A stretch of 64,000 bases of DNA, taken from NCBI GenBank assembly GCA_000091205.1, contig AP006483.2, one strand, 5' to 3'. Position 1 is the stretch's first letter; each line of letters starts with the position of its first letter. Positions 9,737-47,332 of the stretch are shown here, piece after piece. The stretch is from Cyanidioschyzon merolae. Its lineage: Eukaryota. A program made the translations under genes and the position numbers. The notes beneath the pieces were generated by a model, which did not search any database, was not told where the DNA came from, and worked only from the letters and a program-made list of their open reading frames with translations.

Positions 9737-10046
9737 CGGAGTTTCGCGCACTTGATGTTTCCCATGATTACATTGGTACTGGATGAGCAATCCAGACTGG
9801 AGACCAAGTTGCGCGATTTTGATTTGTCTACGACCCCTCATGTGAAGCGGTGACGCACATTGCGTGGTGAAGCGATTGGTGCGGTGACTGAAGTTCTAGA
9901 CCAAGACTGTCTTCCATCGAACCAGAGGATATGAGCGCGCCCGGGAGCATGCCCTGTGGGAAGTATCAAGTCGGCGCTGAATACTGGTGCATGGATGTCC
10001 GCCAAAAGAAGAGGACTAGTCTCTCAAATGGAACTGCCTGTTTGAC
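9737..10046 (+). repeat. R1 direct repeat, copy 2
   Basis: Near-identical to 1–311. It lies 0.7 kb upstream of the start of the minus-strand CPP1-like gene. Confidence 0.9.
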
Positions 10047-12490: not shown

Positions 12491-12791
12491 CTCTGCCGAT
12501 TGATATATATATATTGTATGGTTGTGAAAGATGTTCATTTTACTGACAAGCCAGGTGACCTTAGTTATGCCTTTCTTACTCCTGCACCAGGATCGTCACC
12601 AAGGCCGGCGGCGTTTCGTCTGCTCGGCAATAAACCTCACCTGAGTCTGCAGGGCGGTTGCGAGCTGTACGGAAACACGCCTGCGGCGCATGATCCAGAA
12701 CACACCTGCGCGTCAATGTACTGTTACTACAGCGCTCCGCTGATAATTCTCAGAGGGACGTTTACTCGTGCAGAGACTGCTAATGCGGTAA

Positions 12792-13661: not shown

Positions 13662-15476
13662 CCTTGGAATGAACCGTAAAGTTCGTGCTCCGAGCGTCTG
13701 CTTTTCGGGCATCGAGATGAGTTCCGGAGGTGAAGAGCACTATAGGAATATTGCTTATAATATCAGATTGTGTACGCCGCACAGTAGGAAGACGCTTCTT
13801 TTATTCCGGTTGGCAATCATCTGAAAATAAGCCACAATCGGATCATGTCCTACTGAGCCAGAGATCTCGAATCAGAAAACGTAAATTTCCGTGGCGTAAG
13901 CAATTCAAATCCGCAAGAAACCAGACGAAACAACAGAGCGCAAATCTGTTACTCATTGTTAGACACTTACCAAGGGATCTGAGGTGACTGTATCAGAAAC
14001 GGCGCAAGCGGAATAGTATGTAATGGTGGGGACACATCTAAGTATGCGAATTTTAACGAAAACTACAGAATGAGTTCAAATATGATCCAGATCGTTCGAG
14101 CTGAACTACCGCTTCTAGATAAAGCAAAAATTGAAATCTAATTGGTAAATTCAGAATGCGCACCGGCCAATTTTCGATGAATCGATTGGATTTTGCATCC
14201 GCACATCAAAATGTTGGAACTTGTTTTCACTGACACAGGTTCATTCCTCAAAATGTTGCTTAGTATGCAAACACAGCGCTCCATTAATCTTTGTCACCTT
14301 CTGGTTAAGGCTTGCACAATTCTGCTTAAGTATCGTGCTCAAATCCGAGATCCAGTACTCGCGAAGAAGATGTGGGTATTTCACAGCGCAGTTGAATCCT
14401 GGCTGTCTATCCATAGTACAGCAGAGCTTCCGATGCTATGTTTTCTTGTGGCTAACAACTGGTTTGTAATGAATTGCCATATGTGATGTTTTTACGGTGA
14501 TGAAGAAAATTTAAGTTCCCAGTCTTTGCAAACATCATTGTCAACTCTTACTCTTCAAAAATTTCGCGACTGTACTATATGTAGTGCTTTGGGGAAGAAC
14601 TGTGCGAGCCTGCCCTTTCGTTTTTTGTTTTCATCACGAATATGCAACCAAAATGGACGTATCCCGTAGATGGGAGAAAGGTGGCGGGGAGGCTTTCTAC
14701 TATCACTGCTTATTTCGAAAAAACGTCTAAACTTGCTTCAGTCAAGAATCCGAGGCACAGCGGACAAATGCCCTGATCTCCTCCGCGCGCCTACTCTGGA
14801 CGCCATGAAGAAAACATAGAACTCACAGAGCTCCTTCATATAAGACTGTTTCTTCGTAGATTCATTCCACTCAATACCTTCTCTAGAAGGCACTATCATA
14901 GAAGCAACAGGGTTCGAAGAATCAATACCGTCGCTACGAACCGTGATGAAAGGCTATCAGAGGACAAACAGAAAAGCAAGCTTGTATGGACACATACGCG
15001 CTACGAATAATGTTTTATCGACTTCATGCCGAAACGCGAACGCTTATTACAGGATAAAAGGGTGTTCGTCTCACTAGATGAAAATTCTTGATGAAAAAAT
15101 GGTGGGCGAGTCTGTGTGTACTCAAAGAGCGTCAAATGTCTGGTCTTAGAGAATGTATAATCGAACAATGCGAAAACATAAACTCCAGCGGCCGCTCAAT
15201 AGGGTTGTCGCTTACAAAGAATCACATAGACAGGATTGTTCAACACCTCGTCTTTCGTCCGTGCACTATTTGACTTCCCCGCCCAATATTCTCCTATATT
15301 TCTCTAAAATGATGTCGATCTCTGTTACAAAAATGCCGTCTACGAGTGCGCAGCGAAGATGGGCGCTCTTTGCTCTACTAATACTTCCGCTGCCCAGCTA
15401 ACAGCCAGCGCGAGCGGCTTGTGAATAATTTCCCGGTACATGTAGATCGTGGTGCTGCTGGATCGAGCGCGCGTTT

Positions 15477-18400: not shown

Positions 18401-19073
18401 GCAAAAACGCCTGGACGGCTTTTCGATTTTGCAGTTACAGGAGCGATATGAGCGTGCGCAGCAGTCTTATGATACAATTAAGACGGAGCTTGGCGCCCTA
18501 GAAAGACTTCTGCAGCGCATTGAGGACGGGCTCGTCGAGCGTGTGAAGTCGTTTATTCAGCTCCGGGCTCAGATCCAGAAGCATGTTAGCGCCTATTTCG
18601 GCTACTATATCCACATGCGAGGCCATTATGGAAGCATCAAGTTCGATGACCGATCCCAGGAAATGCGCTTACGAGTCGCAATCAGCCATCACCGAACGCA
18701 CGAGGGCGAATTGTGCTTCGCCCAAGACCTACGCTCGCTCAGCGGCGGAGAACGGTCTTTCACAACACTGGCGCTCATGCTCGCGCTCGGTGAAGCCATG
18801 GAGGCGCCATTTCGCATCATGGATGAATTTGACGTCTTCATGGACGAAGCAAACCGACGAGTCGCGTACAAAACGCTCATCGACATTGCGAAGCGAGAGA
18901 GCAGGCGTCAGTTTGTTTTCATAACACCGCTGACGCTGCCAAACCTGCGCGCTGACCCTGAGTGCGTTCGTGTTGTGCGACTCGTACCGCCAGTGCGTGG
19001 TACAGACAATGTGCAACAGACAATTCTTGACGATTTCGCCCCAAACGCAGGAGATGTCACTGATCCGCAGTAG
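15477..19073 (+). CDS. SMC6: Structural maintenance of chromosomes protein 6 (SMC5/6 complex), 1198 aa
   Basis: The N-terminal Walker A region, GILEWIRLENFMCHRCFEVKFGPNVNIISGPNGSGKSAIVAALQLVFG, matches the SMC6 signature NFMCH...GxNGSGKSA. Long coiled coils with a hinge follow. The C-terminus has LSGGERSFTTLALMLALGEAMEAPFRIMDEFDVFMDEANR (signature motif plus Walker B). Confidence 0.85.
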   Translation: MARCMHLHSSNCGLRMARLGTETTGGRPSTPSEQTATQTASARRTAKRRRTNTSSLADFRSKRERGGTSGRTPSQDESVGAAQLPEPVAQASSQLQLGELAVETRFPVSVAVQSRARSFAQYGILEWIRLENFMCHRCFEVKFGPNVNIISGPNGSGKSAIVAALQLVFGSSSTSTDRGRRARDLIRIGASSGLVAVRLKNRPDETDAVDGRFRPDVYGDSIVIQRRLTRTGVSKWSFHNAEGRRVQTERSARLELEAIMDHFSIQVSNPVAILTQKKSKEFLSSGKPSDLYKFFMEATKLGEVRDALMEVRNQAAEIRSMYGRKEAEIPRLQTELNAAKAAFEEAQRIEHLEEELKSLREHYAWALVAEAEHRLAHALEDRNKAQNLIDEGERRLGLLENEISAKSDELNNRNRELREINEMINRDISEETNVEAALREVRAEIRRLEQQRARLSSIQTNRKDERDAVLAEQEKLRHRSISSDSQLVQHHQQLQQLMDEIARLSTLLETKRCLLNQLETQLETARADQAQLRTRLQLRESALRQAERSLVELQQSTQDPRVIFGGPHVTALLADVERAMEQKIFSRKPIGPLGSFLRVRDPKWTLPIEFSISAAVLSAFVVHNLTDAEALRRLAEQRKYPIPRILVQDMDAPLYRPRAELLPPAELITVHSQIRIEAHEQVLQNVLMDHAETELNLLFDTAEDARRAAFELRPRNARVCWSAGGDRAQVGAGGSNQFRAGPDPSRYTPKLAGDIEHQIILKQRLLENERREYELLKVRETDCKNTVDDLERRRSQIAQDLVGLENEERMKRHRIELLRESREDETTDAFLPDAYQERVAAIDAELESISKQLQVYEDEIKLAKDKENEIETRDRDRRRMERELDERRRELAKNCRTLAAEHAQLQAELQALRSGIEKEQVNLGALETRLETLRNELRREEHNALQVCARLECEIRPVQELRIEIASLESRVQTEQKRLDGFSILQLQERYERAQQSYDTIKTELGALERLLQRIEDGLVERVKSFIQLRAQIQKHVSAYFGYYIHMRGHYGSIKFDDRSQEMRLRVAISHHRTHEGELCFAQDLRSLSGGERSFTTLALMLALGEAMEAPFRIMDEFDVFMDEANRRVAYKTLIDIAKRESRRQFVFITPLTLPNLRADPECVRVVRLVPPVRGTDNVQQTILDDFAPNAGDVTDPQ

Positions 19074-19500
19074 CTGTAGGCGGAAGACGAACGGAATTCC
19101 ATACGGTCAGTGCTCTGGAGCAACAAAGTTCGTCATCTACCGCAGACTACTAGGGCCTCAGCGATAAACGGCGTCTTTCATCCCGCTTGCTTGCATGCGA
19201 ATGCATGTGCGAGCGCTGCCAAGATATGGATACTTTCGACGATGCGCACCACACCCTGAGCATCTCGCTGCATTGTTGTGAGCTCTTTTTCGTTTTGCCC
19301 CACCAGCCGGATGGGATGCGCTTGACTGGTTCCCATTGTAGGTTTTCATCGCTCTTCGGGGGCACCTTGGCGCGGAGCGCACTCGACAGCGGACGAGCGG
19401 AATGCCTTGAGTATTTGCTGTGCCAGTACTTGCGCTCATGACCCTTGACTGTTACGTAAGCGTAACTCCACACCCTCATCGGCTAAACAAACTGTGTGCG

Positions 19501-19902
19501 CTAGCAAGGGTTCATCTGAAAAGCCACCTGCTCCAGGCCTGCGAGGCGGTTCGATCGCTTGACGGGCGCGAAACCGCAGCCGGGGCACAGCCGATGTGGA
19601 AGGTGGAATGTCCCGCAGTTCGGACACTGTTGCACGTTCGGATAGGGTCGCAAGCCCTTCCCGCTGGCGCGCATTCGCTTCCGAGAGTGCGACGTTTTTT
19701 TCTTGGGAACCGCCAGCAGTACGTGCTGGAGAAACGGCCGCTCCGAGCAGACGGAGCCCACCACGACATTCGTTAAACGCTCCCAAGCGAGCAGCGCCCC
19801 AAGTCGAAACGTCTCAAGGCACGGTGCGCTGAAACAAGTCAGGGCCGAGGATATTAACGATCGCATCGGGTGCGGGGGCAAAAACTGTATCCCTAACCAC
19901 AA
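19501..19902 (-). CDS. Bacterial-type, organellar ribosomal protein L32 (bL32), nuclear-encoded with an N-terminal presequence of about 60 aa
   Basis: AVPKKKTSHSRKRMRASGKGLRPYPNVQQCPNCGTFHLPHRLCPGCG matches the L32p core (AVPKxKxSxSRxxxRRxH...CxxCG). An N-terminal extension precedes it. Confidence 0.75.
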   Translation of the reverse strand: MWLGIQFLPPHPMRSLISSALTCFSAPCLETFRLGALLAWERLTNVVVGSVCSERPFLQHVLLAVPKKKTSHSRKRMRASGKGLRPYPNVQQCPNCGTFHLPHRLCPGCGFAPVKRSNRLAGLEQVAFQMNPC

Positions 19903-19980
19903 CCAGCCTTGCGGTTGTAGGCGTAAAGCTATATTCTTTCGTCGAGCAAACCTATTTGGAATGCAGGTACGCGATGATCG

Positions 19981-21344
19981 TTCAGCTCAAAATTGTTTCA
20001 CAAGCGCTGCATGCGCTCGAATACCATTTGTCAGTGTGGAGCAGGTGATCCAAACCACTCGGTAATCTACCGCATACATCATAGACGAATTGCCTTTGGG
20101 ACATATATACTCTTTACTGCGCAGAGCAAGGAGGAATACATTCCTTCTTCAGGCCAATCACACAGCAGTACTCAGATAGTTGAGGAACACTGAAAGAAAC
20201 AAGTATATGCGCTCTGTGCCAAAAGTCGATATTCGTGAAGCGTGCTTGGGGCCAATGGTGGCAAACGACCCATTGATCGTCTTATTGGAAGGAAAAGGGA
20301 CAACAGTAGCCGACATTGGCGTCTCTGCTTCTCAACAGCTTGTTCTTGTGGTCCTGGGAACACCCGGATACAATTACAAAGAAATGACAGATTTCATTCA
20401 CGGCCATCTTGCACCGAAATTGCAACTAGAGCGTACCTGGAACGTCGCGATCGCTATTAAGCACAGGACAGTCGGTTTGCGTTTCCAGTCGATGAGACGT
20501 CATTCGCTCGAAAAAGTCGGAGCTCATATGGGTATTCGGATAGAAAGAGCCCGTCATATGTGCGACCGAACTCGTTGAGAAATGGGACATCATCTGTTTC
20601 GGCTGGAACGGATTCATGTGGCGGCCTCATTTTCGCCCTAAGAGACGGCTTCCACAACAGCACCAAATACATCGAATAACTGATGACTCTTGCCTGACGT
20701 CTGGTGATGTCGTTCTGTTGCACAATGCGGCATTTCTCTCTTCCCCTAGCGTTCAAGCTTTTGTCGATTCTATCGAGGGGTAGAGCTGCTGTTCATTCCT
20801 GCGTACTCTACGTGGTTGAAACTCATCGGAAGGGTCTTCTCTATCGTGCAAACGTAGTGATCGCTCCACGAGGCAAATCGCTAAGGCCTTCAGCACACGG
20901 TGACACCGGGGCACATTTCGTCTTTCTTCCGCAAACCCTTCTCCGTCAATTACCGTCCGCATCTGGCGGCATAGTTAAGTGCGCTGTTTCTAAAACATTA
21001 AAGGACGGGCTGGGATATCCACTTCATAAGGTCAAGATGGAGCGAAGCGAGCGGGGCGCTTCGGCGACAGAAAAGCACCCAGAGCTGACAGAGCACCAAA
21101 TTGCACAGAGGGCTCGAGAGGTCGAGGAATCCCTGATGTGATGCGTTCAATCAGAGGCAATAAACACGTGGAATTCGTGGATTGAAACTTGGACGCCGCC
21201 ATAAATACCAGATGATATGTTGTGCTGAAGAAGAGACCCGTGGGGAGAACGTGAGCGAACTTCATGGGGCAGCCTCTCGGACTCGAATTGTACACGGAGA
21301 AACTGAAGCCGATTGCAGGCTGCAGGTCAAAAAGACTGGGAGGC
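19981..21344 (+). mobile_element. R2 dispersed repeat, copy 2 (1364 bp). It fills the spacer between the divergent L32 and HMG-CoA lyase genes.
   Basis: Near-identical to 11127–12490. It starts 79 bp from the L32 start codon and ends 66 bp before the proposed HMGCL start. Confidence 0.85.
20180..20578 (+). pseudogene. Transposase-like relic in R2 copy 2 (identical to 11326–11724)
   Basis: The same 132-aa ORF as in copy 1. Confidence 0.3.
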
Positions 21345-21410
21345 GTCTGCGCGAGGAGATTAATATACTCTCTGGCTGCGAAACGTTCACGGACCTCTGA
21401 CCGTTCGTCT

Positions 21411-22472
21411 ATGTACAAGCTAACTTGGTGTCTGCGCCACTCGCGTCCAGTTTTTGGACGGAACTCTGTGTCGAATAATCCCGGCTCCCGGCACCAACTC
21501 TCTAACTTTTCTCTCACTGCGAAAAAGCCAGTCCAAATCGTCGAGGTCGGTCCACGCGATGGCTTGCAGACGGAGCGGCCTCTTCCGGTTGAGGACAGGA
21601 CGGAGCTTATACGCCGCCTTGTACTCGACGCTGGATTGCACAAGGTTGAAGTTGGCAGTTTCGTCTCTGAAAAGCGAGTACCGCAAATGGCTCAAACGGA
21701 GCAGGTCATTGCTCGACTACAGGCTACTCTTTCCACCTCCGTGCAGAAGCACGTAACTTTTCCTGTTTTGGTGCCAAACGAGAAGCATCTCGAGCGAGCT
21801 TTGAACGCTGGCTGTCAGGATTTTGCAGTCTTTGTTTCATCCACGGAAGGGTTCAGCCAACGGAACCTAGGCTGCTCTGTAAGCGAGAGCCTCGAGAAGG
21901 TGGACACTATCTTTCGCCGGCTGGAACAGGAACCTAACCGCGACGCCTTTTCAGTTCGAGGGTATGTTTCATGCATTTTCATGTGCCCCTTCGATGGTGA
22001 CGTATCCCCGGCTCATGTACGGCAAGTTGCGAGCGCACTGCTGGAGATGGGTTGCTACGAAGTGTCTCTCGGGGATACGCTCGGCATGGGAACTCCGGCT
22101 CATGTGCGGCGTCTTCTGGATGAACTTTTTGGTCACGAGACTAGAACGGCTGGCAAGTACGCCGTCCATTTCCATGATACATATGGCATGGCCGTTGCTA
22201 ACATTTTATGTGCCATTGAAGAATACGATATTTGTGTAGTGGATAGCTCTGTTGGGGGTCTCGGCGGTTGTCCGTTTGCACCTGGCTCCACGGGAAATGT
22301 TGCCACAGAGGACGTCCTCTACCTATTGCAAGGCCTAGAACGAGCCGAAAGGGGGGTTGATCTAATGAAACTCACTAACATAGGGGCCTGGATTAATGCG
22401 AAATTCGGGCGTGAAACACGATCAAAAGCTGCTCTAGCCCTTTTGCGGAAGCAGCGCAGCGACGAAGGATAG
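21411..22472 (+). CDS. HMGCL: Hydroxymethylglutaryl-CoA lyase (HMGL-like TIM barrel). The longest ORF begins at 21264 inside the R2 repeat, so I chose the first Met after the repeat boundary.
   Basis: VQIVEVGPRDGLQTERPLPVEDRTELIRRL (the EVGPRDGLQNE motif), VHFHDTYGMAVANILCAIEEYDICVVDSSVGGLGGCPFAPGSTGNVATEDVLYLLQGL (the HMG-CoA lyase active-site region with GGCP). The codons of ORF 21264–22472 that lie within the R2 repeat copy (to about 21344) also occur in copy 1 (12410...), where the reading frame diverges after ...KRLGG. Confidence 0.85.
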   Translation: MYKLTWCLRHSRPVFGRNSVSNNPGSRHQLSNFSLTAKKPVQIVEVGPRDGLQTERPLPVEDRTELIRRLVLDAGLHKVEVGSFVSEKRVPQMAQTEQVIARLQATLSTSVQKHVTFPVLVPNEKHLERALNAGCQDFAVFVSSTEGFSQRNLGCSVSESLEKVDTIFRRLEQEPNRDAFSVRGYVSCIFMCPFDGDVSPAHVRQVASALLEMGCYEVSLGDTLGMGTPAHVRRLLDELFGHETRTAGKYAVHFHDTYGMAVANILCAIEEYDICVVDSSVGGLGGCPFAPGSTGNVATEDVLYLLQGLERAERGVDLMKLTNIGAWINAKFGRETRSKAALALLRKQRSDEG

Positions 22473-24461
22473 GTTGCTTCTCTTGCGAATAGCTTCAATA
22501 ATCTCTCTAGAAATTTGCGGTGCGCCAGACAGGCGCAAATAGGGCCTGCCTGATAGCAAGAGCGGTCGAAGTACTAGGACCAAGTTCTTTTACGCATACT
22601 CGCCGCTCAAACGGAAGGCGTCAGGAACCCTCTTCTGCCGAGGCGTCATGGCATCGCTGCCTTTCGAAGCAGTTGATTAGCGCGCAAGCGTTTCTGTATA
22701 GTGGAACGTTTGGGTTTTGAACATACTCTGAAGTATGCCGCATATGCCCGTATAAAGTGAACCATATCCATTTCAGACTAAAATGAAATAGATCCACTAC
22801 GCTAGGTCTGACGTCAAAAGTACTGTTTTGGTTTCGTCTAGATAGCACCAGCACCAGACCTTGCCGGCATTTTCGGCGATTGCTTCCTTTTCCTCTCTCT
22901 CATCCCCAGTGTTGTACACGCAGCTCTCTCCTGGAACTCTGGCTCCATTGCCAGCAGTCGAATGATATTGATGGCTGCAGTAAATTCCAGATTACGCCGT
23001 TTCTAGCTGCTGTCAACTCAACTCCTTCACATGCGGAAGTTGTTACCTGCACTTCGCTCGGCGTTTCTATCTTGTTAGTATAAAGGCTCGGTGTGCCCTG
23101 TACAACGGCGACATGAGAGAGTGGTAAAGTGTTCAAATATGCCCTCCAGACCTCCTCTCCTAACAGTTGCACAGTGGCGCGTTACGCGTGCTTCGCCGCT
23201 TCCTAAATGTCCTTGACGGTCCGAAAGGCTGCCTCAACAACATCCCCGTTTTCCGCACCAGGGCCGAATCATAAGATCATGGGCTTATTCTGAGCGATCC
23301 CAACGGCGAATACTCTGTCCGCTGCACAAGCAAGCGCACGCTATTCAATTCAACAGAGGTTTTTTTAGAACGCGATACAATCTATTACGGAGCATTTTTA
23401 GAAAGGAATGTTAAGGCTGGAGAGCAAGTCGAGAAATATCGATCCGTCAACGCTTCGCTCTTCTAAAGTGGTGACGCACTCTACACTTGAAGTGATCTCT
23501 GGGATGAATCAGGCCCGAGTCCAGAACCAATTTCCATGCATAATTAAGAGAGTGAAGCCTCTGGTAGCATAACCCTCGAGAGTTATCATAGTGCTGTGGA
23601 ATTCGAGTTCGACGATGGCAACAGAGAGACGTGATATCGGCTTTCAAACATGATCGCTAATTCGACGAGAGAAGCTTACTGAATTATTTGTAGTCAGCAT
23701 ATGAATAATTATTCAGTCGCCAACGTCAAATTTATTTTGTATTTAATGCAGAGGCGTGAGTAGTTTGACCCACACGCTGCCTTTTATCAGTGAGATCGAA
23801 AATTGAATAGTGCGCGATGCGCACATGTTACTAGGAAAGAAAGAAACGGTTTGATGCTTGCGCTTATGATTTGGATAAGGAAGAACATTGCTGCTGGAAT
23901 CGCTCTTCAGCGACGTCATCCATTGTCCTGATTCCAGTGCCGTTTTGAATTCGAACGGCGAAGCGTTTAAGGAGTCACTCCGCAACGGCGATTACGAATA
24001 CTGAAATTACGAATGCCCCCGTAGTCCCCAATTGATGCATACGAAATGTTGACTTTGCTCATCCGAAAAATCGGATACAAATCTCAAAGCAGGGACAGAG
24101 CGAGCAGCTCAGCCTTCCATTCTGATATGATACAGGACTAGGGACCGAGTCACGCCGTTCTGCGAGCGGCAACATAGGCAGCGATCTCTTGAGAATCGCA
24201 CACCCCAAAAAGTTCGATACTTCACGAATATGGCTTGTTCGGGTTCAGGGTCACCCATTTCGTGTCGACGAAGATACGCCTTCGATAACGTCTCACAGGT
24301 TGGAGCCACTGGGAAAATTGCACAGTGCTTGCTCCAGTCTGCGTCCAGTTTCCTGATCCGTCCCGAAAAATCTGGCAGTAGGTGCGTGCGCGAAGATGTC
24401 GCTGCCTCATTGATACATCGGACAGGGTTGGACTCCTGGAGGCCAGGCAACGGCAGTAACG

Positions 24462-25211
24462 ATGGGGTCTGTTTTAGGCAAAATAGCGGTAGAAACACCG
24501 CAATTTGAGCTTCTGAAACGCACTGATAGCTACGAGATACGAAAGTACGGTCCTTTGGTGGCTGCGGAGGTTCGTGCCTCAGAAGTTTTCGCGGGTCAAG
24601 AGCACAAAGGCAACAAGCTTGACAGTACCGGGTTCCGGCTACTAGCAAGCTATATTGGTGCGATCGGAAAACCTGCAAATGTTGCTGTGAGCGGCGAGCG
24701 GGCTGAATCCATCGCTATGACTTCACCAGTGGTTAACCAACCAGAGAAAATTGCCATGACGGCGCCTGTTGTGAGCCGCGCTGAAAAGGTTGCAATGACA
24801 GCTCCGGTAGTCACGTCAGACACAACAGAAAGCGGTTCTCGCAGTTCAGCAGGAGGGTTGCGCGGTCAGTCTGGCGCAATGAAGACCGAAGAAGGTGGCG
24901 TCATGGCTTTTTATCTGCCAAGCAAATACAGCTCCGTTGAAAGCGCTCCGAAGCCACTTGACGAGCGTGTCCATCTGGTCCAGATTCCACCGCGAAAGGT
25001 TGCCGTGGCTATTTTTAGCGGAAACACAGACATGCGCCGGTCAAGGACACAGGCAGAGGAACTTTTTGCTGCTCTGAAGGTGGACCAGATTCGGATGAAA
25101 GGAGATCCGGCATCCTTGGATGATGCAGTATGGTGGCTAGCACGGTACAATCCGCCCTGGTCACTTCCCTGGACAAAACGTAATGAAGTTCATATCGAAC
25201 TCGAATCATGA
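24462..25211 (+). CDS. SOUL haem-binding protein family, 249 aa, with an internal 3x 13-aa tandem repeat
   Basis: YEIRKY...FxxLxxYIxGxN..., IAMTAPVV, MAFYLPSKY, VAVAIFSG and WWLARYNPPWSLPWTKRNEV are the SOUL/HBP signature blocks. IAMTSPVVNQPEK, IAMTAPVVSRAEK and VAMTAPVVTSDTT are repeated in frame. Confidence 0.8.
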   Translation: MGSVLGKIAVETPQFELLKRTDSYEIRKYGPLVAAEVRASEVFAGQEHKGNKLDSTGFRLLASYIGAIGKPANVAVSGERAESIAMTSPVVNQPEKIAMTAPVVSRAEKVAMTAPVVTSDTTESGSRSSAGGLRGQSGAMKTEEGGVMAFYLPSKYSSVESAPKPLDERVHLVQIPPRKVAVAIFSGNTDMRRSRTQAEELFAALKVDQIRMKGDPASLDDAVWWLARYNPPWSLPWTKRNEVHIELES

Positions 25212-25258
25212 GCTCAAAGCACTCGGAGCAGTGAACCAGTTTGTGCCTTACGCGGTGT

Positions 25259-25837
25259 TTATGCACTAGTTAGGGCTATGGCTAAGAAGATCGCGACTGC
25301 GGCAGACACGCTGCCAAGGATAGCGGCTGGCATGACTTTCCTCGTTTTGGCATATCTGATCCCGAACACGACAGTCAACACAAGGGAAACGCCAAGCGCA
25401 AGGGCTATTGATGATTGTGAGTATGCCACCCCAAGGAGTACCGCGGCACCTAAGCCGCTAATAATACTAGCCTTTGACTTGGTGCGCGCATAAGCACCCA
25501 CCCCACCTACTGCCATAACGGCCGCATAGACAAGGGTAACAATTTTTACAGTCTCCGTCATCGTGGCGCGCAGCCGGCCGAGCCGGCTTCGTTTGGAGTT
25601 GTAAACTTCAGAGGGCGAAGCATGCAGCACTCTCCCAGCTCGAGACGGAACCAAAGCACGCCCAGGGAGAGCACTGCGCGGGACACCCACGCGAGGAAGC
25701 GTTGAAACCGAACAGTAAAGTTTGCTGCGCTCCTTATGAAAAACCTTCGCCTTATCTGGAACAACTACTGTAAACATAACTAGTCTCACAAACTGGAACT
25801 GGCGGTGGCGAACGCTACTCGAAAAGCTCGACAACAA
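25259..25837 (-). CDS. TMEM14-family membrane protein (FAX-like) with an N-terminal presequence of about 90 aa. The core starts near the Met at 25561.
   Basis: The C-terminal 100 aa has four TM helices with the TMEM14 motifs YAAVMAVGGVGAYARTKSKASIISGLGAAVLLGVAY and ILGSVSAAVAIFLAI. The N-terminus is R/S/P-rich, like a transit or presequence. Confidence 0.65.
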   Translation of the reverse strand: MLSSFSSSVRHRQFQFVRLVMFTVVVPDKAKVFHKERSKLYCSVSTLPRVGVPRSALPGRALVPSRAGRVLHASPSEVYNSKRSRLGRLRATMTETVKIVTLVYAAVMAVGGVGAYARTKSKASIISGLGAAVLLGVAYSQSSIALALGVSLVLTVVFGIRYAKTRKVMPAAILGSVSAAVAIFLAIALTSA

Positions 25838-28540: not shown

Positions 28541-29655
28541 GGTCATTACCATTCCAACCGGTTGAGCAAGCTGGCGCAAGCGCGCTTCTTGCCTCCCTAC
28601 AGCCGAGGGCTTCGGCGATCCCAGCACGGTCTCATGTACTCCTGCCAGAGGTAGTGCGCATATGACCTTTGCTCGCTCACGTACGCTCTGGAGCGGGGCA
28701 CAGGGCAGCTCATGGCGGGTGCGGGCAGCGATCTATCAGTCGGAGACCTCCGGTTCGACGGCTGGGAACCACTCGTCTTGAGACCCGCGAGCGTAAAATG
28801 GCGTTTGACAAGAGAGCACACGCTTTGTAGTGGATTGAACCAGAGGACAGCCTGGCACGCAGAGCAGCTCGACACCTGTCTCAACTGCGTACGGCTTGAC
28901 CGCGTGTGATTGATGGCGACCGACGTTATCGAAGCGCTGAATAGAAGGATATGCGAAGGAGAAGCCAGTGAGCGTGCGTCGACGGAGGACGCGGTGTTGA
29001 GCGGTGCTGTACTTTTGGGAACGTGTAGGCGACCGCTGGATAACATCGTCGCTCGAGAAGGTGTTGTCGGAATGCTCGCGTGGCTCTTCTTTACGAACAG
29101 CTGTGTGCGCCTCCCTGAGTAGCCCTAGTCAGGTCTGCTAGTTCTCTAGAATAAGGTCGCATCGAGCGAGACGAAGACGCATCCCTGCAGAAGTAAGCTT
29201 TCGCGCCTCACTGCGACGTCGATAGAGCAGCGTTCAGCGCGGGACACTGGAGTCTAAGAGCGTGCTTTGCGCTTTGTCTACCCGCATCTCCTGCTCTCCG
29301 CTCGTGTGACGGGGTAGGGGATCTGCGCGCACTGGTGCCTCTCTGAGTGTACGATTCAGGAAACGTATGGAGTGGCTTTGATTCCCGTGGAGAGAATCTG
29401 CTAGGCAGAGAATGCTATGTTCTCTTTTGGATGTGCGCTGCTCAGGATGAAGGCATCGACACAGGTGGTTCATCGACCAGGTTAACGCGGATGTACTGAC
29501 TCGTAGATTTCAAGGGGTTATTGTCTGGCTCGCTTCAGCGTAGGGAAAAGCGCCTTCTCGACCTTCCCGCAGTCTACAGGAAACCTTCATATTGCAGATT
29601 ACCTACGATAAACAACGGACAAAAGTAGAAAGTTAGAGTAGGTAGAGGCTTTCCA
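28541..29655 (+). repeat. R3 direct repeat, copy A (1115 bp)
   Basis: It reappears at 34080–35194 at about 98% identity. The same ORF set is found in both copies: a 149-aa minus-strand ORF, 65- and 70-aa plus-strand ORFs, and a 79-aa minus-strand ORF, with 1–2 substitutions each. None has a recognisable coding signature. Confidence 0.9.
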
Positions 29656-30534
29656 ACACTTTCTCCATCGAGGTAACTGCGCGCTTAAATTTTTGACAAG
29701 ACATTACCACTGACCACGGATCCCATACAGCGGGATGGATGTTGGCTTTCAAGAAAGTGTCCATAATGGTGTTCCGCATCTTCAAGTATCATGACCCAGA
29801 ATTCGTCTAGGATGCACAGATTGTTTTGAACATTCGATTGTGTACAGAGCCTGTCGTAATCGCCCGCCGCAGCGGATGCAGCATGGAGACAGTACGGCTC
29901 TGCTATACCACTGAGGGCGTCCGCTCGACGCACGGTTCGCTAGTCACAGGATCGGGATTTATCATTATTGTGAGAGCCTGGAATCTGTGCATACGCACTT
30001 TCTGCATGCAGCAGCACGAGGCGATATGCTAAGAGACCACCGCGATCAGGGCGACGCCCGGACACTGCTTTAGCACCCCTAGTCCCGGAATAAAGTGCGT
30101 TGCGGAGTTGCTGTTCAGGTCTCGCAACTGCAGCCAACACTGCAGAGGTGCACCGAGCACGAACCTGGCAGACTCGTCCTTCTCGCGGGACCTTCCGCCG
30201 AGAAGGAACAGTTTTGAAAATGCGGAAGTCTCTACCACCTTTTACAGCCTACCATAGAATACGAAAGCAGTTGTTATCTAGTTGCTAGATAGTGGCTAGT
30301 TTCTGTTCTTTTAGCGCAGTTGCAACTTGTAAGTGGATAGTTTCTTTCAGCGAGCTTTGATGAGCGGCGCATACCTTCTGGAATCATCCGCTCAGTGACG
30401 GAAGTAGCATGGAATTTTGGATAGTTTCTTTTCGAAAGAGTTGCTGCCAACAGTGTTCTATTGCAGACCGCACTACTGCAGCCGATTCCGGTTGATGCCG
30501 TGCTCATCAACGTGAAGCAGCGTTTGTAGCTCCT

Positions 30535-33500
30535 TTACAAGTATAGAGACGCAGCGAAAACTATATCTCGATGAAGTAGTGCACTGCTCTGGGCAAACTT
30601 GGCACTCAGAGCTGCGTCGCCTACTGAATCAACCGCGTTACGAAGCTGCTGGAGGACCTCATCGACCCGGCGCATGCAGCGTATGAGACTTCCCTCAAAA
30701 ACTTTCGCAAGTTTCAAGGCTTCAGAGAATGGCTGGCCTTTGCACCACGCATGAATAGCGGAAATGATGTTGGGGTCCCAGTTTGGTTCCTCACAAACGT
30801 ATTCCCATCGCAGACCGGCGTCTCTTTGGACTCGGGCAATACGGCCCACGACGCGGTGAATATCCTGCTGTACCTTTTGCAAATGTTCTCTGATATCCGC
30901 ATCTTCTGCTACAGCCATTTGGCTGTCTTTGGCTTTCTCATCCAGCACAAAACCGCTCAGAATGGCCGGTATCAGGGGCTCTGGCATGTCCCTGAGGATG
31001 CCTTCGAAGATGCATTCAGTCAAGATGAGTTCGTTTGCTGCGCTGATCTCGCAGCATACGCGGCCCTTGGGAGAGAGCTGTTTGTTTTCGTCGAGGTAAC
31101 CGAGCGCGTGAAGAACCCGATTCATCGCTTCGAGCTCGGCAGCATGAATAAGATGACTTCTGACACGTAAGTCCCTCTGGATTTTCTCCGCTTGTGGAGC
31201 AAGTTGGAGACGCAGCCCATAGAGTTTGATATCCTCATGTAACTCGGGTTTCGATGCAGCGCACTTGCGCATTTCCTGCACTAAGCATCGGCGTTCGTGC
31301 ATCAACGCACGCAAACTTTTTTCCCGAATGCCAAAGTCGTAAATCGGGTCCAAGAGCGGCAAGCCGCCGCCAACCGAGGCGTAATGGCGCTCTGCCGACT
31401 GCACGCGTTCGCTGATGATGGAGCGACTCATTTCTGTATCGACTGTTTCGGGCATTTCGATGCAAACCGCCGATATCAACTGGATCAGTGAGCGTTGCAA
31501 GTTTTGTAGACGCCATACACCGTCGACTTTTCTTCGGAATACGGAAAATCCGTGTGTCTTATTCGGAAGGCCGCAGCATTTTGGATCCATAACGACGGAC
31601 CAGTGCTGGTCATCCCGTAGTTTCAGAAGCCGACCATTCTTCAAAAATAAGTCAACATTCTCGCACCGGTAGTAGCGTGATATGTTCCGGTCTATTTCAG
31701 CTAATCTCTGATTCAATTTGTAGAATTGCTCCACCTCTTCTTCTTCGTGTGTAAAGTGCATTTGCTTCATTTCGGCCTCTAGGTTTTCCAATTCCGCAAC
31801 CGCGTTTTCCGCCCGTTTCACTGCCTGAAATTGGGCGAAGGACCGGACCATAATTTGCTCCGGACGAGACTCCTCTGACCGTTGTAAATTCAGTAGCATA
31901 TTGTAGCCAAGGCGGAAAGCGCTGGTCAACTCGTCCGGACGACCAGAGAGGATTCGACGCAGGCAATCCTCGTTGGTGTCATCTTCCAGTCTCAGAATCA
32001 CAATGCCCCGCTCATCCAGACCTCTGCGCCCAGCACGGCCGGACATTTGGATGTACTCGCCACTCGTGATGTACCGCACATTGCGCCCGTCGAACTTTTT
32101 CAACGCAGTGAAGAAAACCATCCGCGCAGGCATGTTCAGTCCCAGGGAAAATGTTTCTGTAGCCAACAGAACTTTCACGAGACCCTCCTGAAACAGAATC
32201 TCGACGATTTCCTTAACAATGGGAAACAAACCTGAATGATGAACACCAACGCCTCGTTTCAGCATTTCGAGCATCGTGCCGATCTGGTCCAGCTGTTGGT
32301 CTTGCGAGTTCAACGTCGCCATTGCATTCTGGTAGACGTTTTCGACGAGTGCTTTCTCTTCCTCGCCATTCAGGTCCATTCCAGAGATGCAGCGCGCCAG
32401 AGCTTCACAATCCTTGCGGCTGAACGAGAAAACAATCATTGGCTGCAAGTCCTGATCGATTGCAAACCGAATGATTTTCCGAAACTCCGCATTCGAGAGG
32501 GTGCGGCCTCTGCTCGGTCCGCGAAATCGATCAATCCTTAAATCCTTCCGGATTCGTTCGAAATTTTTGCGATAGAATCTGCCGCCCTCGTCTTTTAACA
32601 AAACGAGTCGGTCTTCCTGATTGGAAAGCGCGAAATGGCGAAGCGGCACGGGTCGTTTTTCGGTATAAACTGTATGACAGGGGGCTTGATGGAGTGCCAC
32701 AATCCATTCGGCAAATTCTTCGGCGTTCGGAATTGTTGCCGAAAGGAAGACGAAGCGAACACTGTCTGGAAGCAGAATAATGCTCTCCTCCCAGACGACG
32801 CCACGCTCACGATCGCGCATGTAATGAACTTCGTCGAAGATGACCCAAGCGGCCTCTCGAACAACATCGGAGCCCCTGTACAACATGGATCGCAAAATCT
32901 CAGTGGTCATGATCAAACAGCTCGCATTTGGGTTCAGCGTCACATCACCCGTAATGAGACCAACATCATTGAATTCGCTTTGAAATTCTCGATATTTCTG
33001 GTTGCTTAGAGCCTTAATTGGCGAGGTATAGATGACCCGACGATGCTCACGAAGCGAGAGCGCAATAGCGTATTCTGCAATGGCAGTCTTTCCGGCTGAG
33101 GTATGCGCTGCAACCATGACAGATTCTCCCGCTTCCAAGCATTTGCAAGCTTCAATCTGGAACAAGTCTAAAGCAAACGGGAATTCTTTCGCTGGGGGGC
33201 GTCCTTTCGGTGGCCAAACAGACAGCTTAGAAGAATCATATTCAGAGAGTGACGCTGGAATAGACACAGTATGGACGCACGCGCAACGACTACCTGTGGA
33301 GAGGTCGAGCACGCTCAGATCATCTATCACAGCGTCAGCTTGGGAAGGCTCTGAAAGAGAGGTTTTGCCGGTTTCTGTCAGGGTTTCAAGCGTCAGCGTC
33401 CTCGGCCGCGAGCCACTGAGCAGAGGGTGTTTGAGCCGCAGCTCCGCCGCGCTCTGCCCAATCCAGGGCGGATCAGACTCGACCTTTGAGCCGGTTGGAT

Positions 33501-33675
33501 CCAATGCATGCTGAGCAGCCGGACGAAAGCGCTTCCTATTTCCATCGCGACGAGCACGGTGCGGGACCCACGAGTTGGAGCCGTGCTGTGCTTCGCGACG
33601 CTTGGTCGCTGTCGTTGAGCGCTTCTGTTCAGCTTCTGAGCCTAGCACCTGCTTGGCGTGTACTTTTTTTCTCAT
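30535..33675 (-). CDS. MTR4: DExH-box RNA helicase of the SKI2/MTR4 family (exosome cofactor, MTR4/SKIV2L2-like), 1046 aa
   Basis: [43 protein letters not shown]...[18 protein letters not shown]...[27 protein letters not shown]...[19 protein letters not shown]...FLSATIPNA (motifs I–III, DEVH). Also [21 protein letters not shown]...GRAGRRG (motif VI), then an arch region and a DSHCT-like C-terminus. The length fits MTR4 better than SKI2. Confidence 0.85.
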   Translation of the reverse strand: [1046 protein letters not shown]

Positions 33676-34079
33676 TATTCTGTAAAAGCGCAGAGGACTC
33701 GTAGGTTCGTGCCAACTTTAACACCAAACACAAAGCGAGTTTGAACAGCGCCTGATGAAATCGAGTCTCAAACACAATTCTCTGTGCACGAAGCCCGACG
33801 CTATTACGCCCCAGATTCGCTGCTCATATGCATACGAATAAGTATCTCTGTTTCTGGGAAAGGGCTTGTTATGGCAAAATATCTGAGGACAGCAAGAAAT
33901 CTCCTGCGCGAAACAACGTCACCAGGTGAGAATTATATGGTTGGCTGTTTCTTATATGAGAAGGAAGGCCTCGAAACTCTGTATACAGCGTGAAATATCA
34001 CCTCGGCCCGGACCTGAGAACCTCTGCGGCTTGGGTGCGAGGCAGGTCGTTTCACGCGCTAAGGAAGCGCGAGTGGGAC

Positions 34080-35194
34080 GGTCATTACCATTCCAACCGG
34101 TTGAGCAAGCTGGCGCAAGCGCGCTGCTTGCCTCCCTACAGCCGAGGGCTTCGGCGATCCCAGCACGGTCTCATGTACTCCTGCCAGAGGTAGTGCGCAT
34201 ATGATCTTTGCTCGCTCACGTACGCTCTGGAGCGGGGCACAGGGCAGCTCATGGCGGGTGCGGGCAGCGATCTATCAGTCGGAGACCTCCGGTTCGACGG
34301 CTGGGAACCACTCGTCTTGAGACCCGCGAGCGTAAAATGGCGTTTGACAAGAGAGCACACGCTTTGTAGTGGATTGAACCAGAGGACAGCCTGGCACGCA
34401 GAGCAGCTCGACACCTGCCTCAACTGCGTACGGCTTGACCGCGTGTGATTGATGGCGACCGACGTTATCGAAGCGCTGAATAGAAGGATATGCGAAGGAG
34501 AAGTCAGTGAGCGTGCGTCGACGGAGGACGCAGTGTTGAGCGGTGCTGTACTTTTGGGAACGTGTAGGCGACCGCTGGATAACATCGTCGCTCGAGAAGG
34601 TGTTGTCGGAATGCTCGCGTGGCTCTTCTTTACGAACAGCTGTGTGCGCCTCCCTGAGTAGCCCTAGTCAGGTCTGCCAGTTCTCTAGAATAAGGTCGCA
34701 TCGAGCGAGACGAAGACGTATCCCTGCAGAGGTAAGCTTTCGCGCCTCACTGCGACGTCGATAGTGCAGCGTTCAGCGCGGGACGCTGGAGTCTAAGAGC
34801 GTGCTTTGCGCTTTGTCTACCCGCATCTCCTGCTCTCCGCTCGTGTGACGGGGTAGGGGATCTGCGCGCACTGGTGCCTCTCTGAGTGTACGATTCAGGA
34901 AACGTATGGAGTGGCTTTGATCCCCGTGGAGAGAATCTGCTAGGCAGAGAATGCTATGTTCTCTTTTGGATGTGCGCTGCTCAGGATGAAGGCTTCGACA
35001 CAGGTGGTTCATCGACCAGGTTAACGCGGATGTACTGACTCGTAGATTTCAAGGGGTTATTGTCTGGCGCGCCTCAGCGTAGGGGAAAGCGCCTTCTCGA
35101 CCTTCCCGCAGTCTACAGGAAACCTTCATATTGCAGATTACCTACGATAAACAACGGACAAAAGTAGAAAGGTAGAGTAGGTACAGGCTTTCCA
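34080..35194 (+). repeat. R3 direct repeat, copy B (1115 bp), about 400 bp upstream of the helicase start
   Basis: Near-identical to 28541–29655. Confidence 0.9.
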
Positions 35195-43488: not shown

Positions 43489-45849
43489 AGCAGGCCAGAC
43501 GTGTCCGCTTAGGCGGCAAAAACGGCGTTTTGCTGCAGAGCGCACTGTAGGTACAAGCATTCAGTGAGACAATGGAGATGCTGTCGCGTGGCAGACGTGA
43601 ACGTGAGGTAGTCAGTTAGAGCTGTATTCCTAGCAAGTTGTTGCCCAACAACGTATACGTTGCGTGAGGCCGCGGCTCTGTCCGTCACGTTAGCGCTGTC
43701 CGGTAGCTGTGGCTGCTTACGTTCCCGCTCAGACGGAGAGACGGGGTGAGGCTCACGCCAACGCTTTTGTGCTCCGGGGCCTCTGGTTAGGTTGATGAAT
43801 ATGCCGTCATCAAAAATCAGCACTCGCTTTTCTTTCGGACTGGGACCTAGGACGATACGATGAAGCAGGCGGGCGACTCGGGTTAAGGCATCACCAGTGG
43901 GTACCTGTGCGCGAAGGGTGCTGGTCGAGCCGGCGATCCTCGGCGGCAGCAAAGTCGCCTGGAAACACCTGTGCGCCTTCAATAAGCTGATATGGCCCAG
44001 ATCGCGCTCCGTCGCTCTGTTGATCTTTGTTAGAGCTGAATATTGCTTGAGCGTTGGGAGCTCTGCTGCCCGTTATAGACTTGTGTCCACGTCGTTCCTC
44101 CCGAAGGCTTGCGCGCTCTTCGGTTTTGTGAGAACTCTATCACCAAGCCATATGGAGCGGAGACCGTGGTGCATGCAAGAGAACGATTATTTTTAGCAAC
44201 TGCCTCCAAAACCCTGATCGCCGCAAGATATACGCAAAAAGCTCCTGCCTAGGTATCTTTCCATGGGGCGTTTTTGGAAACGGGTACAAGATCGGATCGC
44301 AGCCGTGGAGTCTCGGTGCTGCAGACAGGAAAGCTGCTCTGTGAAGTTCCATGCTTTGAGGTTGCGGGCTACTGCCAATGTGAGATTTCATAGGTAAGAA
44401 TTTGGTTAATGTTCGTCGGGACGTGCAGTGGTTGACCGCACTTTTGCCGCTGCAGCAAGGTCTGAACAATTGAAACAGCGCACCCTCTTTTTCCTTTTTA
44501 TTTATTTTTCTCGCAAGTATTCAATAGATGGAATGTGTTCTCAAGTCTCAAGAAAGGCTGCGGAAAGACTTGATTTTGTCCCTGGTTACTGGCCAGAAAC
44601 GCCTTGGCTTGTACTTCTCAGGTATTCTTCGGTCATAAAGTGGACGAGCCACTCTACCTCGACTCTCTCTTCTGAAACTCGTATATCGAAACAAAGCTTA
44701 TGAAGCGCTATCTACACAAATGCCTCCTCATCTGAACATTGTACTCCAGAGGATTTTTAAGATGAATTTCAGAAGGAGCTACAGGATACGAAGTTTTCGT
44801 ACAGTTCGTTCGAACGGTGATGAAGAGACACGTATCGACGTGCAGAAAAAAAGCACGCTCGTATGGGTGATCGTCTCGCCTTGAGCAACACACTACCAAT
44901 GCCGCCGTGAAACCCGATATCTCATTACGGGATAGAGCGGTGCTTTTCTAAGTCGATGCGACTGGTTCCCGGATAAATGTTAGAGCTATTGAGGGGTCCT
45001 CAGCGAGCGACCAATTGGCTGCACTTACAGAAGAAACCAGCGAGAATGACGAGAACATCAGCACTAGCAGCCATTCAAACGAGTGATCGCCTAGAAACCA
45101 CCAAATGGACGGGATCCTTCAACAACTCATCCTTGGTTAGAGCTTTTCGTGGCTCCTCTTTCCCACATTATTATGACCTCTTCTCAGGAAATGGTGGTGT
45201 GAGTCACTTGGAAACTTTCACGGAGTGTGCAGCTCAGCCTGGTGTTGAGCTGCGCTCTCTGCCATCCTATCCGCCCTGCTTCCTCCTGGTCGAAGGCGTC
45301 TTCCCTGCTGTTCGACGCCATGCTTATAGTCACGACTCAGTAGATGTGTCGTTCACTCCTGTGAAACCGCTCTCCATCTAATAGTTCTATAATTTCACAG
45401 GTCGTGGACAGCTCAATTGCCTCTTTGCTCTAGTGCAGGAAGGAGAGAAGTGACTCGCTTCGTTCAGAGAGCGTGCTCTAGACGGTTCAGTTTGAGAAAT
45501 GGTACTTGTTGAATTGTGAATACGCGTATCGAGTAGGCGAGATTCAGTCACGCCGTCCACACAGTGCGTCTGAATCCCGGCGAAAACGGATGCGGAGTAC
45601 TGGGACCATACGGGAATCATCCCGCCAACTAAATGGAACGGACAAGAAAAATCCAGACAAAGAGCCGAAGGATCTTCTCGAAAAGCGGACGAGGAAGGAC
45701 AGAACCCAAAACTCTCGGAGCCAATTGATCAGTCCTGAATGGCTGTAAACGTCCTACATGAAAACCAATCAACGGATTCAATGTTCCCAAACGTGAGATG
45801 CAGGACGCCATCAGGGAACAGGTAGCTCCATAGAGTCTTTCAACTTTTG

Positions 45850-47275: not shown

Positions 47276-47332
47276 CTCGGTATTATTTTACCCCACGGTC
47301 GCGGAACAGTCTCGCTCCTTTGAACTTTCTGC

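Follow-up and report, generated by a model that had tools for sequence, protein, structure and literature searches.

Near-identical direct repeats flanking the MTR4 gene of Cyanidioschyzon merolae are members of an old non-coding repeat family, probably homogenised between neighbouring copies

The two 1.1-kb direct repeats that flank the MTR4 helicase gene of Cyanidioschyzon merolae, R3a and R3b, belong to an old, non-coding repeat family that is specific to C. merolae and, with at least two others of this kind, fills the spacers of this region. We consider it probable that these two members of the old, non-coding family C were made near-identical by homology-dependent copying between neighbours. 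The helicase gene between them is incidental cargo. The DNA analysed (the window) is a 64-kb stretch of chromosome 1 in the finished genome of strain 10D. The central features are:

28541..29655, plus strand: R3a, full-length family C copy, 880 bp past the MTR4 stop codon, in the right breakpoint spacer of a five-gene inversion
30535..33675, minus strand: MTR4/DOB1 exosome helicase gene, single-copy, intronless, 1046 aa
34080..35194, plus strand: R3b, full-length family C copy, separating the divergent start codons of MTR4 (ATG 33675) and a 371-aa gene (ATG 36028)

The initial annotation had described two 1115-bp direct repeats of ~98% identity, 5.5 kb apart, and both self-BLAST and base-by-base alignment bore this out. 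Self-BLAST of the window aligned 28538-29655 with 34077-35194 (1118 bp, 18 mismatches, 0 gaps, 98.39%, E = 0) at an offset of 5539 bp. In the base-by-base alignment, certain identity extended from 28541/34080 (GGTCATTACC...) to 29655/35194 (...GGCTTTCCA), resulting in two 1115-bp copies in the same orientation, ungapped and sharp-edged, with an identity of 98.4-98.5%. The 18 differences between them in 10D are evenly spread along the element. R3b begins 405 bp upstream of the MTR4 start codon, and this value and the 880 bp between stop codon and R3a agree with the earlier estimates of ~400 bp and ~0.9 kb. The sole long ORF between the repeats is that of MTR4. It matched the Pfam families DSHCT, DEAD, MTR4 beta-barrel, MTR4 stalk and Helicase_C, and the 1046-aa protein is 100% identical to the C. 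merolae 10D 'probable nuclear exosomal RNA helicase MTR4', in line with the description of the interior as a single MTR4-type helicase gene and not a retroelement. Note that exact protein look-ups with the 371-aa neighbour and the 10D helicase matched no entry, and that no RNA genes were found in the whole window (Rfam at gathering threshold, ARAGORN).

The R3 pair was recovered in independent assemblies. Four independent metagenome contigs (L001-L004) each extend from the helicase into both repeats, contig L007 spans the left outer junction, and a single 175-kb contig (L008+L010) covers the entire structure at 99.4-99.6% identity. The inner and outer junctions were reproduced with copy-specific bases in six independent contigs, and all four junctions were covered. 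Because independent contigs reproduce the copies and their junctions, the pair is real. An assembly artefact, in the form of a collapsed or misjoined repeat, had been raised as a concern at the outset; beyond the general risk that repeats pose nothing speaks for it, the 10D genome is finished telomere to telomere (PMC1955436), and in view of the six contigs with copy-specific junctions we regard it as practically inconceivable.

Both the window and the 175-kb contig contain just one copy of the helicase with its spacers, and no duplicated interior or hybrid junction. Contig L009 joins the left flank, one R3 and the right flank, with the helicase absent. The sample behind L009 also gave L003, a helicase contig with R3 ends, and L009 is therefore most simply read as the collapse of an assembly loop. 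The two ends of L001 do not overlap, so that nothing here points to circularity or tandem arrangement. No helicase copy-number variant, as anticipated from the repeat geometry, was shown in the metagenome contigs.

The initial annotation had also proposed an LTR-like, helicase-specific cassette. Carried further, this reading would make R3a and R3b the ends of an LTR-like or composite element that moves, excises or amplifies with the helicase. A 4.4-kb interior enclosed by direct ~1.1-kb repeats does resemble an LTR retrotransposon or a pair of solo LTRs, and the structure of L009 would fit an excision, were it not for L003 from the same sample and the non-overlapping ends of L001. However, MTR4, encoded on the opposite strand, is all that the interior contains; gag, pol, integrase and transposase are absent. 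The R3 termini are GG...CA rather than TG...CA, there is no target-site duplication in the flanks (left CTCGAA ...GACTCGAA, right GAATTT GAATTTAC...), the sequence after R3a (ACACTTTCTCC) is unlike a tRNA primer-binding site, and no terminal inverted repeat links the R3 ends. Moreover, the helicase and the 371-aa neighbour are adjacent in relatives without R3, indicating that this adjacency is ancestral and the interior an ancestral cellular gene. LTR retrotransposons have not been found in C. merolae (PMC1955436). With termini, flanks, interior and synteny all against it, a mobile helicase cassette is highly improbable. Other element classes fared no better: the ends of R3 support neither a Helitron (TC...CTRR ends, A|T insertion site) nor a SINE or LINE (terminal A tail, target-site duplication), a MITE is unsupported for lack of terminal inverted repeats, and a composite or other DNA transposon for lack both of these and of a transposase ORF, the ORFs of R3 having no Pfam match.

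R3 is not confined to the helicase. Two homologues of R3 emerged from an nhmmer search of the window, one at 45436..44487 (E 3e-42) and the other at 15365..14616 (E 1e-34), and a family C HMM recovered four copies in the 64 kb, all intergenic. The two copies lying away from the helicase are:

14560..15367, minus strand: copy c, an old family C member with ~53% identity to R3 and in the opposite orientation to R3a, located directly upstream of SMC in the left breakpoint spacer
44440..45445, minus strand: old family C copy d, ~53% identical to R3, between a KH-domain gene and a family B copy

The ungapped identity of R3 to copy c is 167/306, 11.7 SD above background. Pairwise, the old copies are 52.7-55.1% identical, and no conserved blocks stand out. 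Thus, the idea of a helicase-specific R3 is contradicted by these two further copies; at the family level, and within the window, R3 is a dispersed repeat with no helicase association, the outcome that the initial annotation had itself named as counting against its reading. Self-scanning of the spacers revealed ~10 family A, 4 family B and 4 family C copies. Families A and B fill most of the other spacers, and the families jointly make up about one third of the 64-kb window as old repeats at 52-66% identity, a level that ordinary similarity searches miss. One family A copy is split by a 2-kb insert without recognisable ORF.

The lack of coding content in R3 suggested by the initial annotation was confirmed. 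The ORFs of R3 have no Pfam match and no codon periodicity, and the 149-aa ORF is not conserved: in other strains, 10 nucleotide changes alter 8 of its amino acids, and a premature stop is also present. A TBLASTX match between R3 and 14961-15266 was rejected as a shared ORF, with stops in both sequences and several frames involved; the match therefore reflects homology at the DNA level. A 249-aa ORF of family B matched only itself in a protein search.

All three families appear to be specific to C. merolae. Absence was scored at four syntenic or related loci of other Cyanidiophyceae (L005, L011, L012 and L013), in which the family A, B and C HMMs had no match at E up to 10. When R3 and every spacer were compared with the relatives by BLASTN and TBLASTX, no intergenic similarity was detected, so that synteny gives no indication of which R3 copy is ancestral. 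Repeats account for 12.7% of the C. merolae genome versus 0.59% in its sister genus Cyanidiococcus (Cho et al. 2023, PMC9812998). The dense old repeats in the window and their absence in relatives agree with this published expansion, whose repeats are likewise lineage-specific, unclassified, located in spacers, absent in Cyanidiococcus and responsible for approximately doubling spacer length. Published accounts also include a 'novel interspersed repetitive element' or WSV repeat (Nozaki et al. 2007, PMC1955436; 253 copies, ~3.2 kb on average, with a truncated ORF bearing a weak resemblance to WSV486 of white spot syndrome virus). Set against this description, R3 showed no ORF that is conserved, and that of family B matches only itself. 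The published accounts consulted describe neither the families A, B and C defined here nor the high-identity pairs of neighbours among them.

How did two copies of such an old family come to be near-identical? High-identity tracts in the other two families are informative in this regard:

9737..10046, plus strand: R1, 310-bp patch, 98-100% identical to 1-310, inside the old family A copies 3-752 and 9131-10500
11127..12499, plus strand: R2a, tract of 1374 bp, 99.8% identical to R2b, inside the old family B copy 11122-12545
19981..21354, plus strand: R2b, partner of R2a, inside the family B copy 19957-21407

At the edge of R1, identity falls from 98-100% to 50-58%, in register, inside both family A copies. 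The R2a tract stops ~45 bp short of the element end, with in-register homology at the old level beyond it; past the R2 tract all four family B copies align for ~40 bp further at old-level identity. The boundaries of R1 and R2 are thus of the conversion type, being high-identity patches that end inside old elements. Such abrupt tract ends within older homology resemble the concerted evolution of linked low-copy repeats in human segmental duplications and yeast Ty/delta elements. In each family, patches of near-identity are found in neighbouring copies, which suggests that dispersed repeats copy from one another by homology in a genome usually regarded as exceptionally simple.

At R3 the high-identity tract spans essentially the whole element, matching the family C ends to within ~30-45 bp, and its boundaries are therefore uninformative. 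Beyond the edges there are weak signs of in-register old homology of the R3b tail to copy d (p ~0.004) and of the R3a tail to copy c (p ~0.015); the 25-bp tails of R3a and R3b are weakly similar to each other (p ~0.05), and nothing was detected on the left side. Evidence for exchange comes instead from strain comparisons, which rest on short-read metagenome assemblies. At sites 50 and 130, the same alleles turn up in R3a and in R3b when 10D, L007, L009, the 175-kb contig and L001-L003 are compared. R3a and R3b differ at 18 sites in 10D versus 3 in the 175-kb contig, a near-identity that may partly be explained by bubble-popping during short-read assembly; in this contig the two copies also have four derived bases in common. 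Because L001 retains 8 of the 11 b-specific bases, homogenisation in the 175-kb contig is lineage-specific. Polymorphisms common to both copies and an inter-copy distance that varies by strain are features of concerted evolution by conversion. Thus, of the two origins first suggested, recent duplication or gene conversion, the pair of options was well chosen and the evidence favours the latter.

A possible but less probable explanation is that a whole family C element was copied recently over ~5.5 kb, either by transposition (a 'local hop') or through repair of a break by templated insertion, for which the inversion breakpoint is one candidate site. The 1.5% divergence would then date the event, and later exchange would not be needed. 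This would account for a high-identity segment whose two ends fall within ~30-45 bp of those of the family C element, for the even distribution of the 18 differences in 10D and for the rearrangement of the R3a spacer relative to relatives. Most copy-specific bases are common to 10D and L001-L004, and the split of the copies consequently predates the divergence of these strains. However, no target-site duplication, terminal inverted repeat, conserved terminal motif or ORF was found, and there is thus no sign of a transposition mechanism. A 26-mer scan of the metagenome contigs detected no near-identical R3 copy beyond this locus, and hence no second young copy. Recent local copying also fails for R1 and R2, whose tracts end in register inside old elements, and the common alleles and the strain with 3 differences require later exchange regardless.

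Copying between neighbouring old members, the explanation we favour, would proceed as follows. Families A, B and C would have populated the C. merolae spacers after the split from Cyanidiococcus, with two family C copies by chance occupying the spacers on either side of an ancestral single-copy MTR4. Nearby copies in the same orientation may then exchange sequence by non-allelic gene conversion or homology-directed repair, and a process of the R1/R2 type could also explain the whole-element identity of R3. R3a and R3b may themselves have begun as a relatively recent local copy. Crossovers between them would lead to loss or duplication of the helicase. As Mtr4 is essential in yeast, selection would be predicted to remove helicase deletions; recombination could delete the gene, with probably lethal consequences. 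Homologous (pop-out) recombination between direct repeats has been demonstrated experimentally in Cyanidiophyceae (PMC13353863).

Several observations weigh against conversion. The substrates are otherwise only 53-66% identical, far below what is usual for homologous exchange, which would be very inefficient at this level; either the pairs were similar at the outset or the events were rare one-offs. The adjacent direct family A copies 22757-24142 and 25933-27322, 3.2 kb apart, remain at 55.6% and are not homogenised. With a tract covering essentially all of R3 and weak signs of homology at its edges, a recent whole-element copy also fits, and the near-identity in the 175-kb contig is subject to the assembly effect mentioned above.

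Selection would offer a different route to near-identity, with R3 as a duplicated promoter, terminator or boundary module kept similar around MTR4. R3b occupies the promoter spacer from which MTR4 and the 371-aa gene diverge, and three of the four family C copies have their 5' ends pointing toward the start of a divergently oriented gene. C. merolae repeats have furthermore been reported to be transcribed and H3K27me3-marked (PMC1955436, PMC5405695), which we counted in favour of a regulatory role. However, the between-strain divergence of R3a (0.85-1.1%) and R3b (1.5%) is as high as or higher than that of unique spacers (0.17-1.5%), old members are only ~53% identical without conserved blocks, and the relatives do without the element. 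A regulatory module is therefore unlikely.

Family C copies also occur at both breakpoints of a rearrangement in the window:

15477..25837, no strand assigned: block SMC - bL32 - HMGL-like - SOUL - Tmemb14, in the opposite orientation to that of Cyanidiococcus yangmingshanensis and of a second relative

TatA and SMC flank copy c (minus), and Tmemb14 and the helicase flank R3a (plus), whereas the gene order in relatives is TatA-Tmemb14...SMC-helicase. Homologous family C repeats in inverted orientation thus occupy both bounding spacers, as in inversions by non-allelic homologous recombination; unlike in a typical case, copy c and R3a are now only ~53% identical, and the association is a single one. 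The relative's breakpoint spacers contained no inverted repeats. Cyanidium caldarium, examined as an outgroup for the polarity of the five-gene inversion, showed no synteny at its locus. We tentatively raise the rather doubtful possibility that family C copies are active recombination substrates and have shaped this chromosome, copy c and R3a having mediated the inversion and R3a and R3b still evolving in concert on either side of an essential gene. If so, only non-crossover outcomes would survive in a haploid, and the locus would be a natural reporter of ectopic conversion versus crossover in a simple, tractable eukaryote.

The results remove the tempting interpretation of the locus as a mobile or LTR-like helicase cassette and place it within the known C. 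merolae repeat expansion. They are relevant to gene targeting in this alga, where 1-kb homology arms serve, and bear on the origin of the inversions between Cyanidioschyzon and Cyanidiococcus. R3a-MTR4-R3b is not a new kind of element, and could act as a natural assay of conversion versus crossover. A further small repeat was observed next to R3a:

29691..29928, minus strand: small repeat D, adjoining R3a and resembling 1072-1323 in opposite orientation

The window aligned to itself revealed a direct repeat of 1118 bp (28538-29655 versus 34077-35194; 18 mismatches, no gaps, 98.4% identity). Its edges are sharp, certain identity extending from GGTCATTACC (28541/34080) to GGCTTTCCA (29655/35194), with background similarity in the flanks. 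The main features are:

28541-29655, plus strand: R3a, left copy of the repeat
30535-33675, minus strand: MTR4 helicase ORF, 1046 aa
34080-35194, plus strand: R3b, right copy of the repeat
14560-15367, minus strand: copy c, an old homologue of R3
44440-45445, minus strand: copy d, an old homologue of R3

The single long ORF between R3a and R3b contains DEAD, Helicase_C, MTR4 stalk, MTR4 beta-barrel and DSHCT domains and matches the 'probable nuclear exosomal RNA helicase MTR4' of Cyanidioschyzon merolae 10D at 100% identity. R3b starts 405 bp upstream of the helicase ATG, and R3a ends 880 bp past the stop. The initial annotation, which described two ~98%-identical repeats of 1115 bp in the same orientation, enclosing only the exosome helicase at distances of ~400 bp (start) and ~0.9 kb (stop), is thus accurate in its geometry; the two 1115-bp copies are spaced by 5539 bp.

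An origin of the pair in misassembly, considered in the initial annotation, is excluded. The 10D genome was finished telomere to telomere (PMC1955436), and independent metagenome assemblies agree with it. Four contigs (L001-L004; 99.3-99.5% identical) extend outward from the helicase, covering up to 744 bp of R3b and up to 260 bp of R3a with copy-specific bases, L007 crosses the left outer junction, and one 175-kb contig (L008+L010) spans the whole R3a-helicase-R3b structure.

R3 has no Pfam, Rfam or tRNA match and no codon periodicity. In other strains, its 149-aa ORF carries 10 nucleotide changes resulting in 8 amino-acid changes, as well as a premature stop. Thus, R3 is non-coding, as had been proposed. 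The arrangement had also been called LTR-like with an interior that is not a retroelement. The interior is indeed MTR4, but an LTR-like or mobile cassette carrying the helicase is not supported: the R3 ends lack TG..CA, a target-site duplication and terminal inverted repeats, and the helicase and its 371-aa neighbor are adjacent in relatives without R3. Because of this adjacency, the helicase gene is ancestral cargo and no part of a mobile unit.

Nor is R3 confined to the surroundings of the helicase. Two more homologues emerged from an nhmmer search of the window, both on the opposite strand: 45436..44487 (E 3e-42) and 15365..14616 (E 1e-34), the latter with an ungapped identity to R3 of 167/306, 11.7 SD above window background. 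In a four-way alignment of this family (family C), homology begins at R3 position ~45-330 and reaches the 3' end of R3; pairwise identity of the old copies with R3 and with each other is 52.7-55.1%. These two dispersed homologues contradict the special association with the helicase implied earlier. A 26-mer from the R3 start had no copy beyond the helicase locus in a scan of the metagenome collection, which argues against a recent transposition burst.

Comparison of every 500-bp piece with the whole window, followed by the building of family profiles, revealed two more repeat families. Family A (~1.39 kb; six full-length and four partial copies) has a pairwise identity of 52-58%; family B (~1.45 kb; three full and one partial copy), which includes the pair annotated earlier as R2, has a pairwise identity of 66%.

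Copies of families A and B in the window
Family A: 3-752, 4698-6079, 9131-10500, 22757-24142, 25933-27322
Family A: 37749-39138, 49216-50604, 59046-59615 + 61647-62437 (split), 63719-64000
Family B: 11122-12545, 19957-21407, 45794-47330
Family B, partial: 10519-11009, minus strand

Nearly every spacer in the window contains a member of A, B or C, which jointly cover ~1/3 of it. The profiles had no match in the syntenic loci of a close relative (L005 and L011, the latter sequence-identical to GCA_041825655.1), Cyanidiococcus yangmingshanensis (L012) and Cyanidium caldarium (L013), where spacers are much shorter. The larger C. merolae spacers have been ascribed to repeat expansion (12.7% of the genome versus 0.59% in Cyanidiococcus; Cho et al. 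2023, PMC9812998), which the repeat load of the window matches. The R3 pair belongs to this known, lineage-specific expansion of intergenic repeats. For C. merolae, Nozaki et al. 2007 (PMC1955436) counted 253 copies of an interspersed element left unclassified ('WSV repeat') and reported no LTR retrotransposons; family C and this element may or may not be the same.

Note that the six full-length A copies all measure 1370-1400 bp despite their divergence and show no codon periodicity, a length conservation that is odd for neutral relics. At their 3' ends, family B copies run right up to start codons, as in B2, whose end at 47330 is followed by the aminotransferase ATG at 47333. The ATG of the HMGL-like ORF (21264) lies inside copy B1, and R2a has the same ATG upstream of the TatA-like gene, at 12410.

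In the self-comparison, each of the three families has one high-identity direct pair: R1 (A), R2 (B) and R3 (C). R1 (1-310 versus 9737-10046), truncated on its left by the start of the window, lies inside two A copies and is 98-100% identical over 310 bp; identity then falls suddenly to 50-58%, with the two copies in register for a further 450 bp. R2 (11127-12499 versus 19981-21354) is 99.8% identical over 1374 bp of old B copies and stops ~45 bp short of the B 3' end, past which the four B copies can all still be aligned, with identity at the old level. Random duplication or insertion cannot yield such in-register old homology outside the tract; homology-dependent copying can, and would amount to gene conversion or homology-directed repair with the neighboring copy as template. 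Because the R3 tract takes up nearly all of the element, little can be read from where it ends; the tail similarity past the 3' edge is at most suggestive. The strain data add support for homology-dependent copying between R3a and R3b. At R3 sites 50 and 130, the same alleles turn up in R3a and in R3b when 10D, L007, L009, the 175-kb contig and L001-L003 are compared. Differences between R3a and R3b number 18 in 10D and only 3 in the 175-kb contig, whose two copies share four derived bases. L001 retains 8 of 11 b-specific bases, indicating that copy-specific differences predate the strain split and that homogenization was lineage-specific. A relatively recent copy of the whole element, with some conversion afterwards, is a serious alternative, since the strain sequences come from metagenomes assembled from short reads and exchange between sequences otherwise 53-66% identical should be rare. 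The earlier proposal of 'recent duplication or gene conversion' was sound, and we favor conversion on the basis of the R1 and R2 boundaries and the strain alleles. In a genome generally portrayed as very simple, the locus is a modestly interesting example of dispersed repeats that evolve in concert and may have taken part in an inversion.

C. yangmingshanensis and the GCA_041825655.1 organism share one gene order: HSP90 - IMS polymerase - rhomboid - CPP1 - TatA - Tmemb14 - SOUL - HMGL - (bL32) - SMC - helicase - 369-aa gene - KH - aminotransferase. Relative to L005, L011 and L012, the five-gene block SMC, bL32, HMGL-like, SOUL and Tmemb14 (15477-25837) is inverted in C. merolae. The short bL32 gene (19501-19720, minus strand), between SMC and HMGL-like, shows 83% amino-acid identity and synteny with the relatives. 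The left breakpoint spacer (TatA/SMC) contains copy c on the minus strand, and R3a lies in plus orientation in the right one (Tmemb14/helicase). Recombination-mediated inversion, a possible role for family C, predicts such inverted homologous repeats at both breakpoints, but three points weaken the reading: copy c and R3a are now only ~53% identical, this is a single case, and the Cyanidium locus shows no synteny by which to polarize the inversion.

Direct-repeat intrachromosomal recombination has been used for marker excision in Cyanidiophyceae (PMC13353863). At 1.1 kb and 98% identity, the R3 copies are an adequate substrate for pop-out or unequal exchange, in line with part of the initial annotation, which saw the helicase as a deletable or amplifiable cassette. 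Mtr4 is essential in yeast. Because, in addition, strain 10D is haploid (PMC13353863), deletion of the helicase is probably lethal there. In L009 (Ga0080006_1172602, a 142-kb contig), a single R3 joins the left and right flanks and the helicase is absent. This could possibly be a real deletion haplotype; the same sample also gave the helicase on a separate contig with an R3 end (L003), as expected from an assembly graph loop. Thus, L009 is probably a loop collapse and is not counted as evidence for a deletion. L001 has no overlap between its ends and gives no hint of a circular molecule or tandem array.

Several minor elements accompany the repeats. An imperfect 12-nt hairpin at 29600-29644 (TACCTACGATAA / TTAGAGTAGGTA) stops 11 nt short of the 3' edge of R3; the old family C copies do not clearly conserve it, and its strength does not exceed that of other chance pairs. 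Just right of R3a lies a small repeat, D (29691-29928), similar to 1072-1323 in opposite orientation; both copies are downstream of gene 3' ends. The split A copy is interrupted by a 2031-bp insert (59616-61646) with no recognizable ORF and no second copy in the window. A tandem array at 50506-51038 (period 185 bp, 2.9 copies, 91% matches) overlaps the 5' end of the A copy at 49216-50604, and its later units repeat that end.
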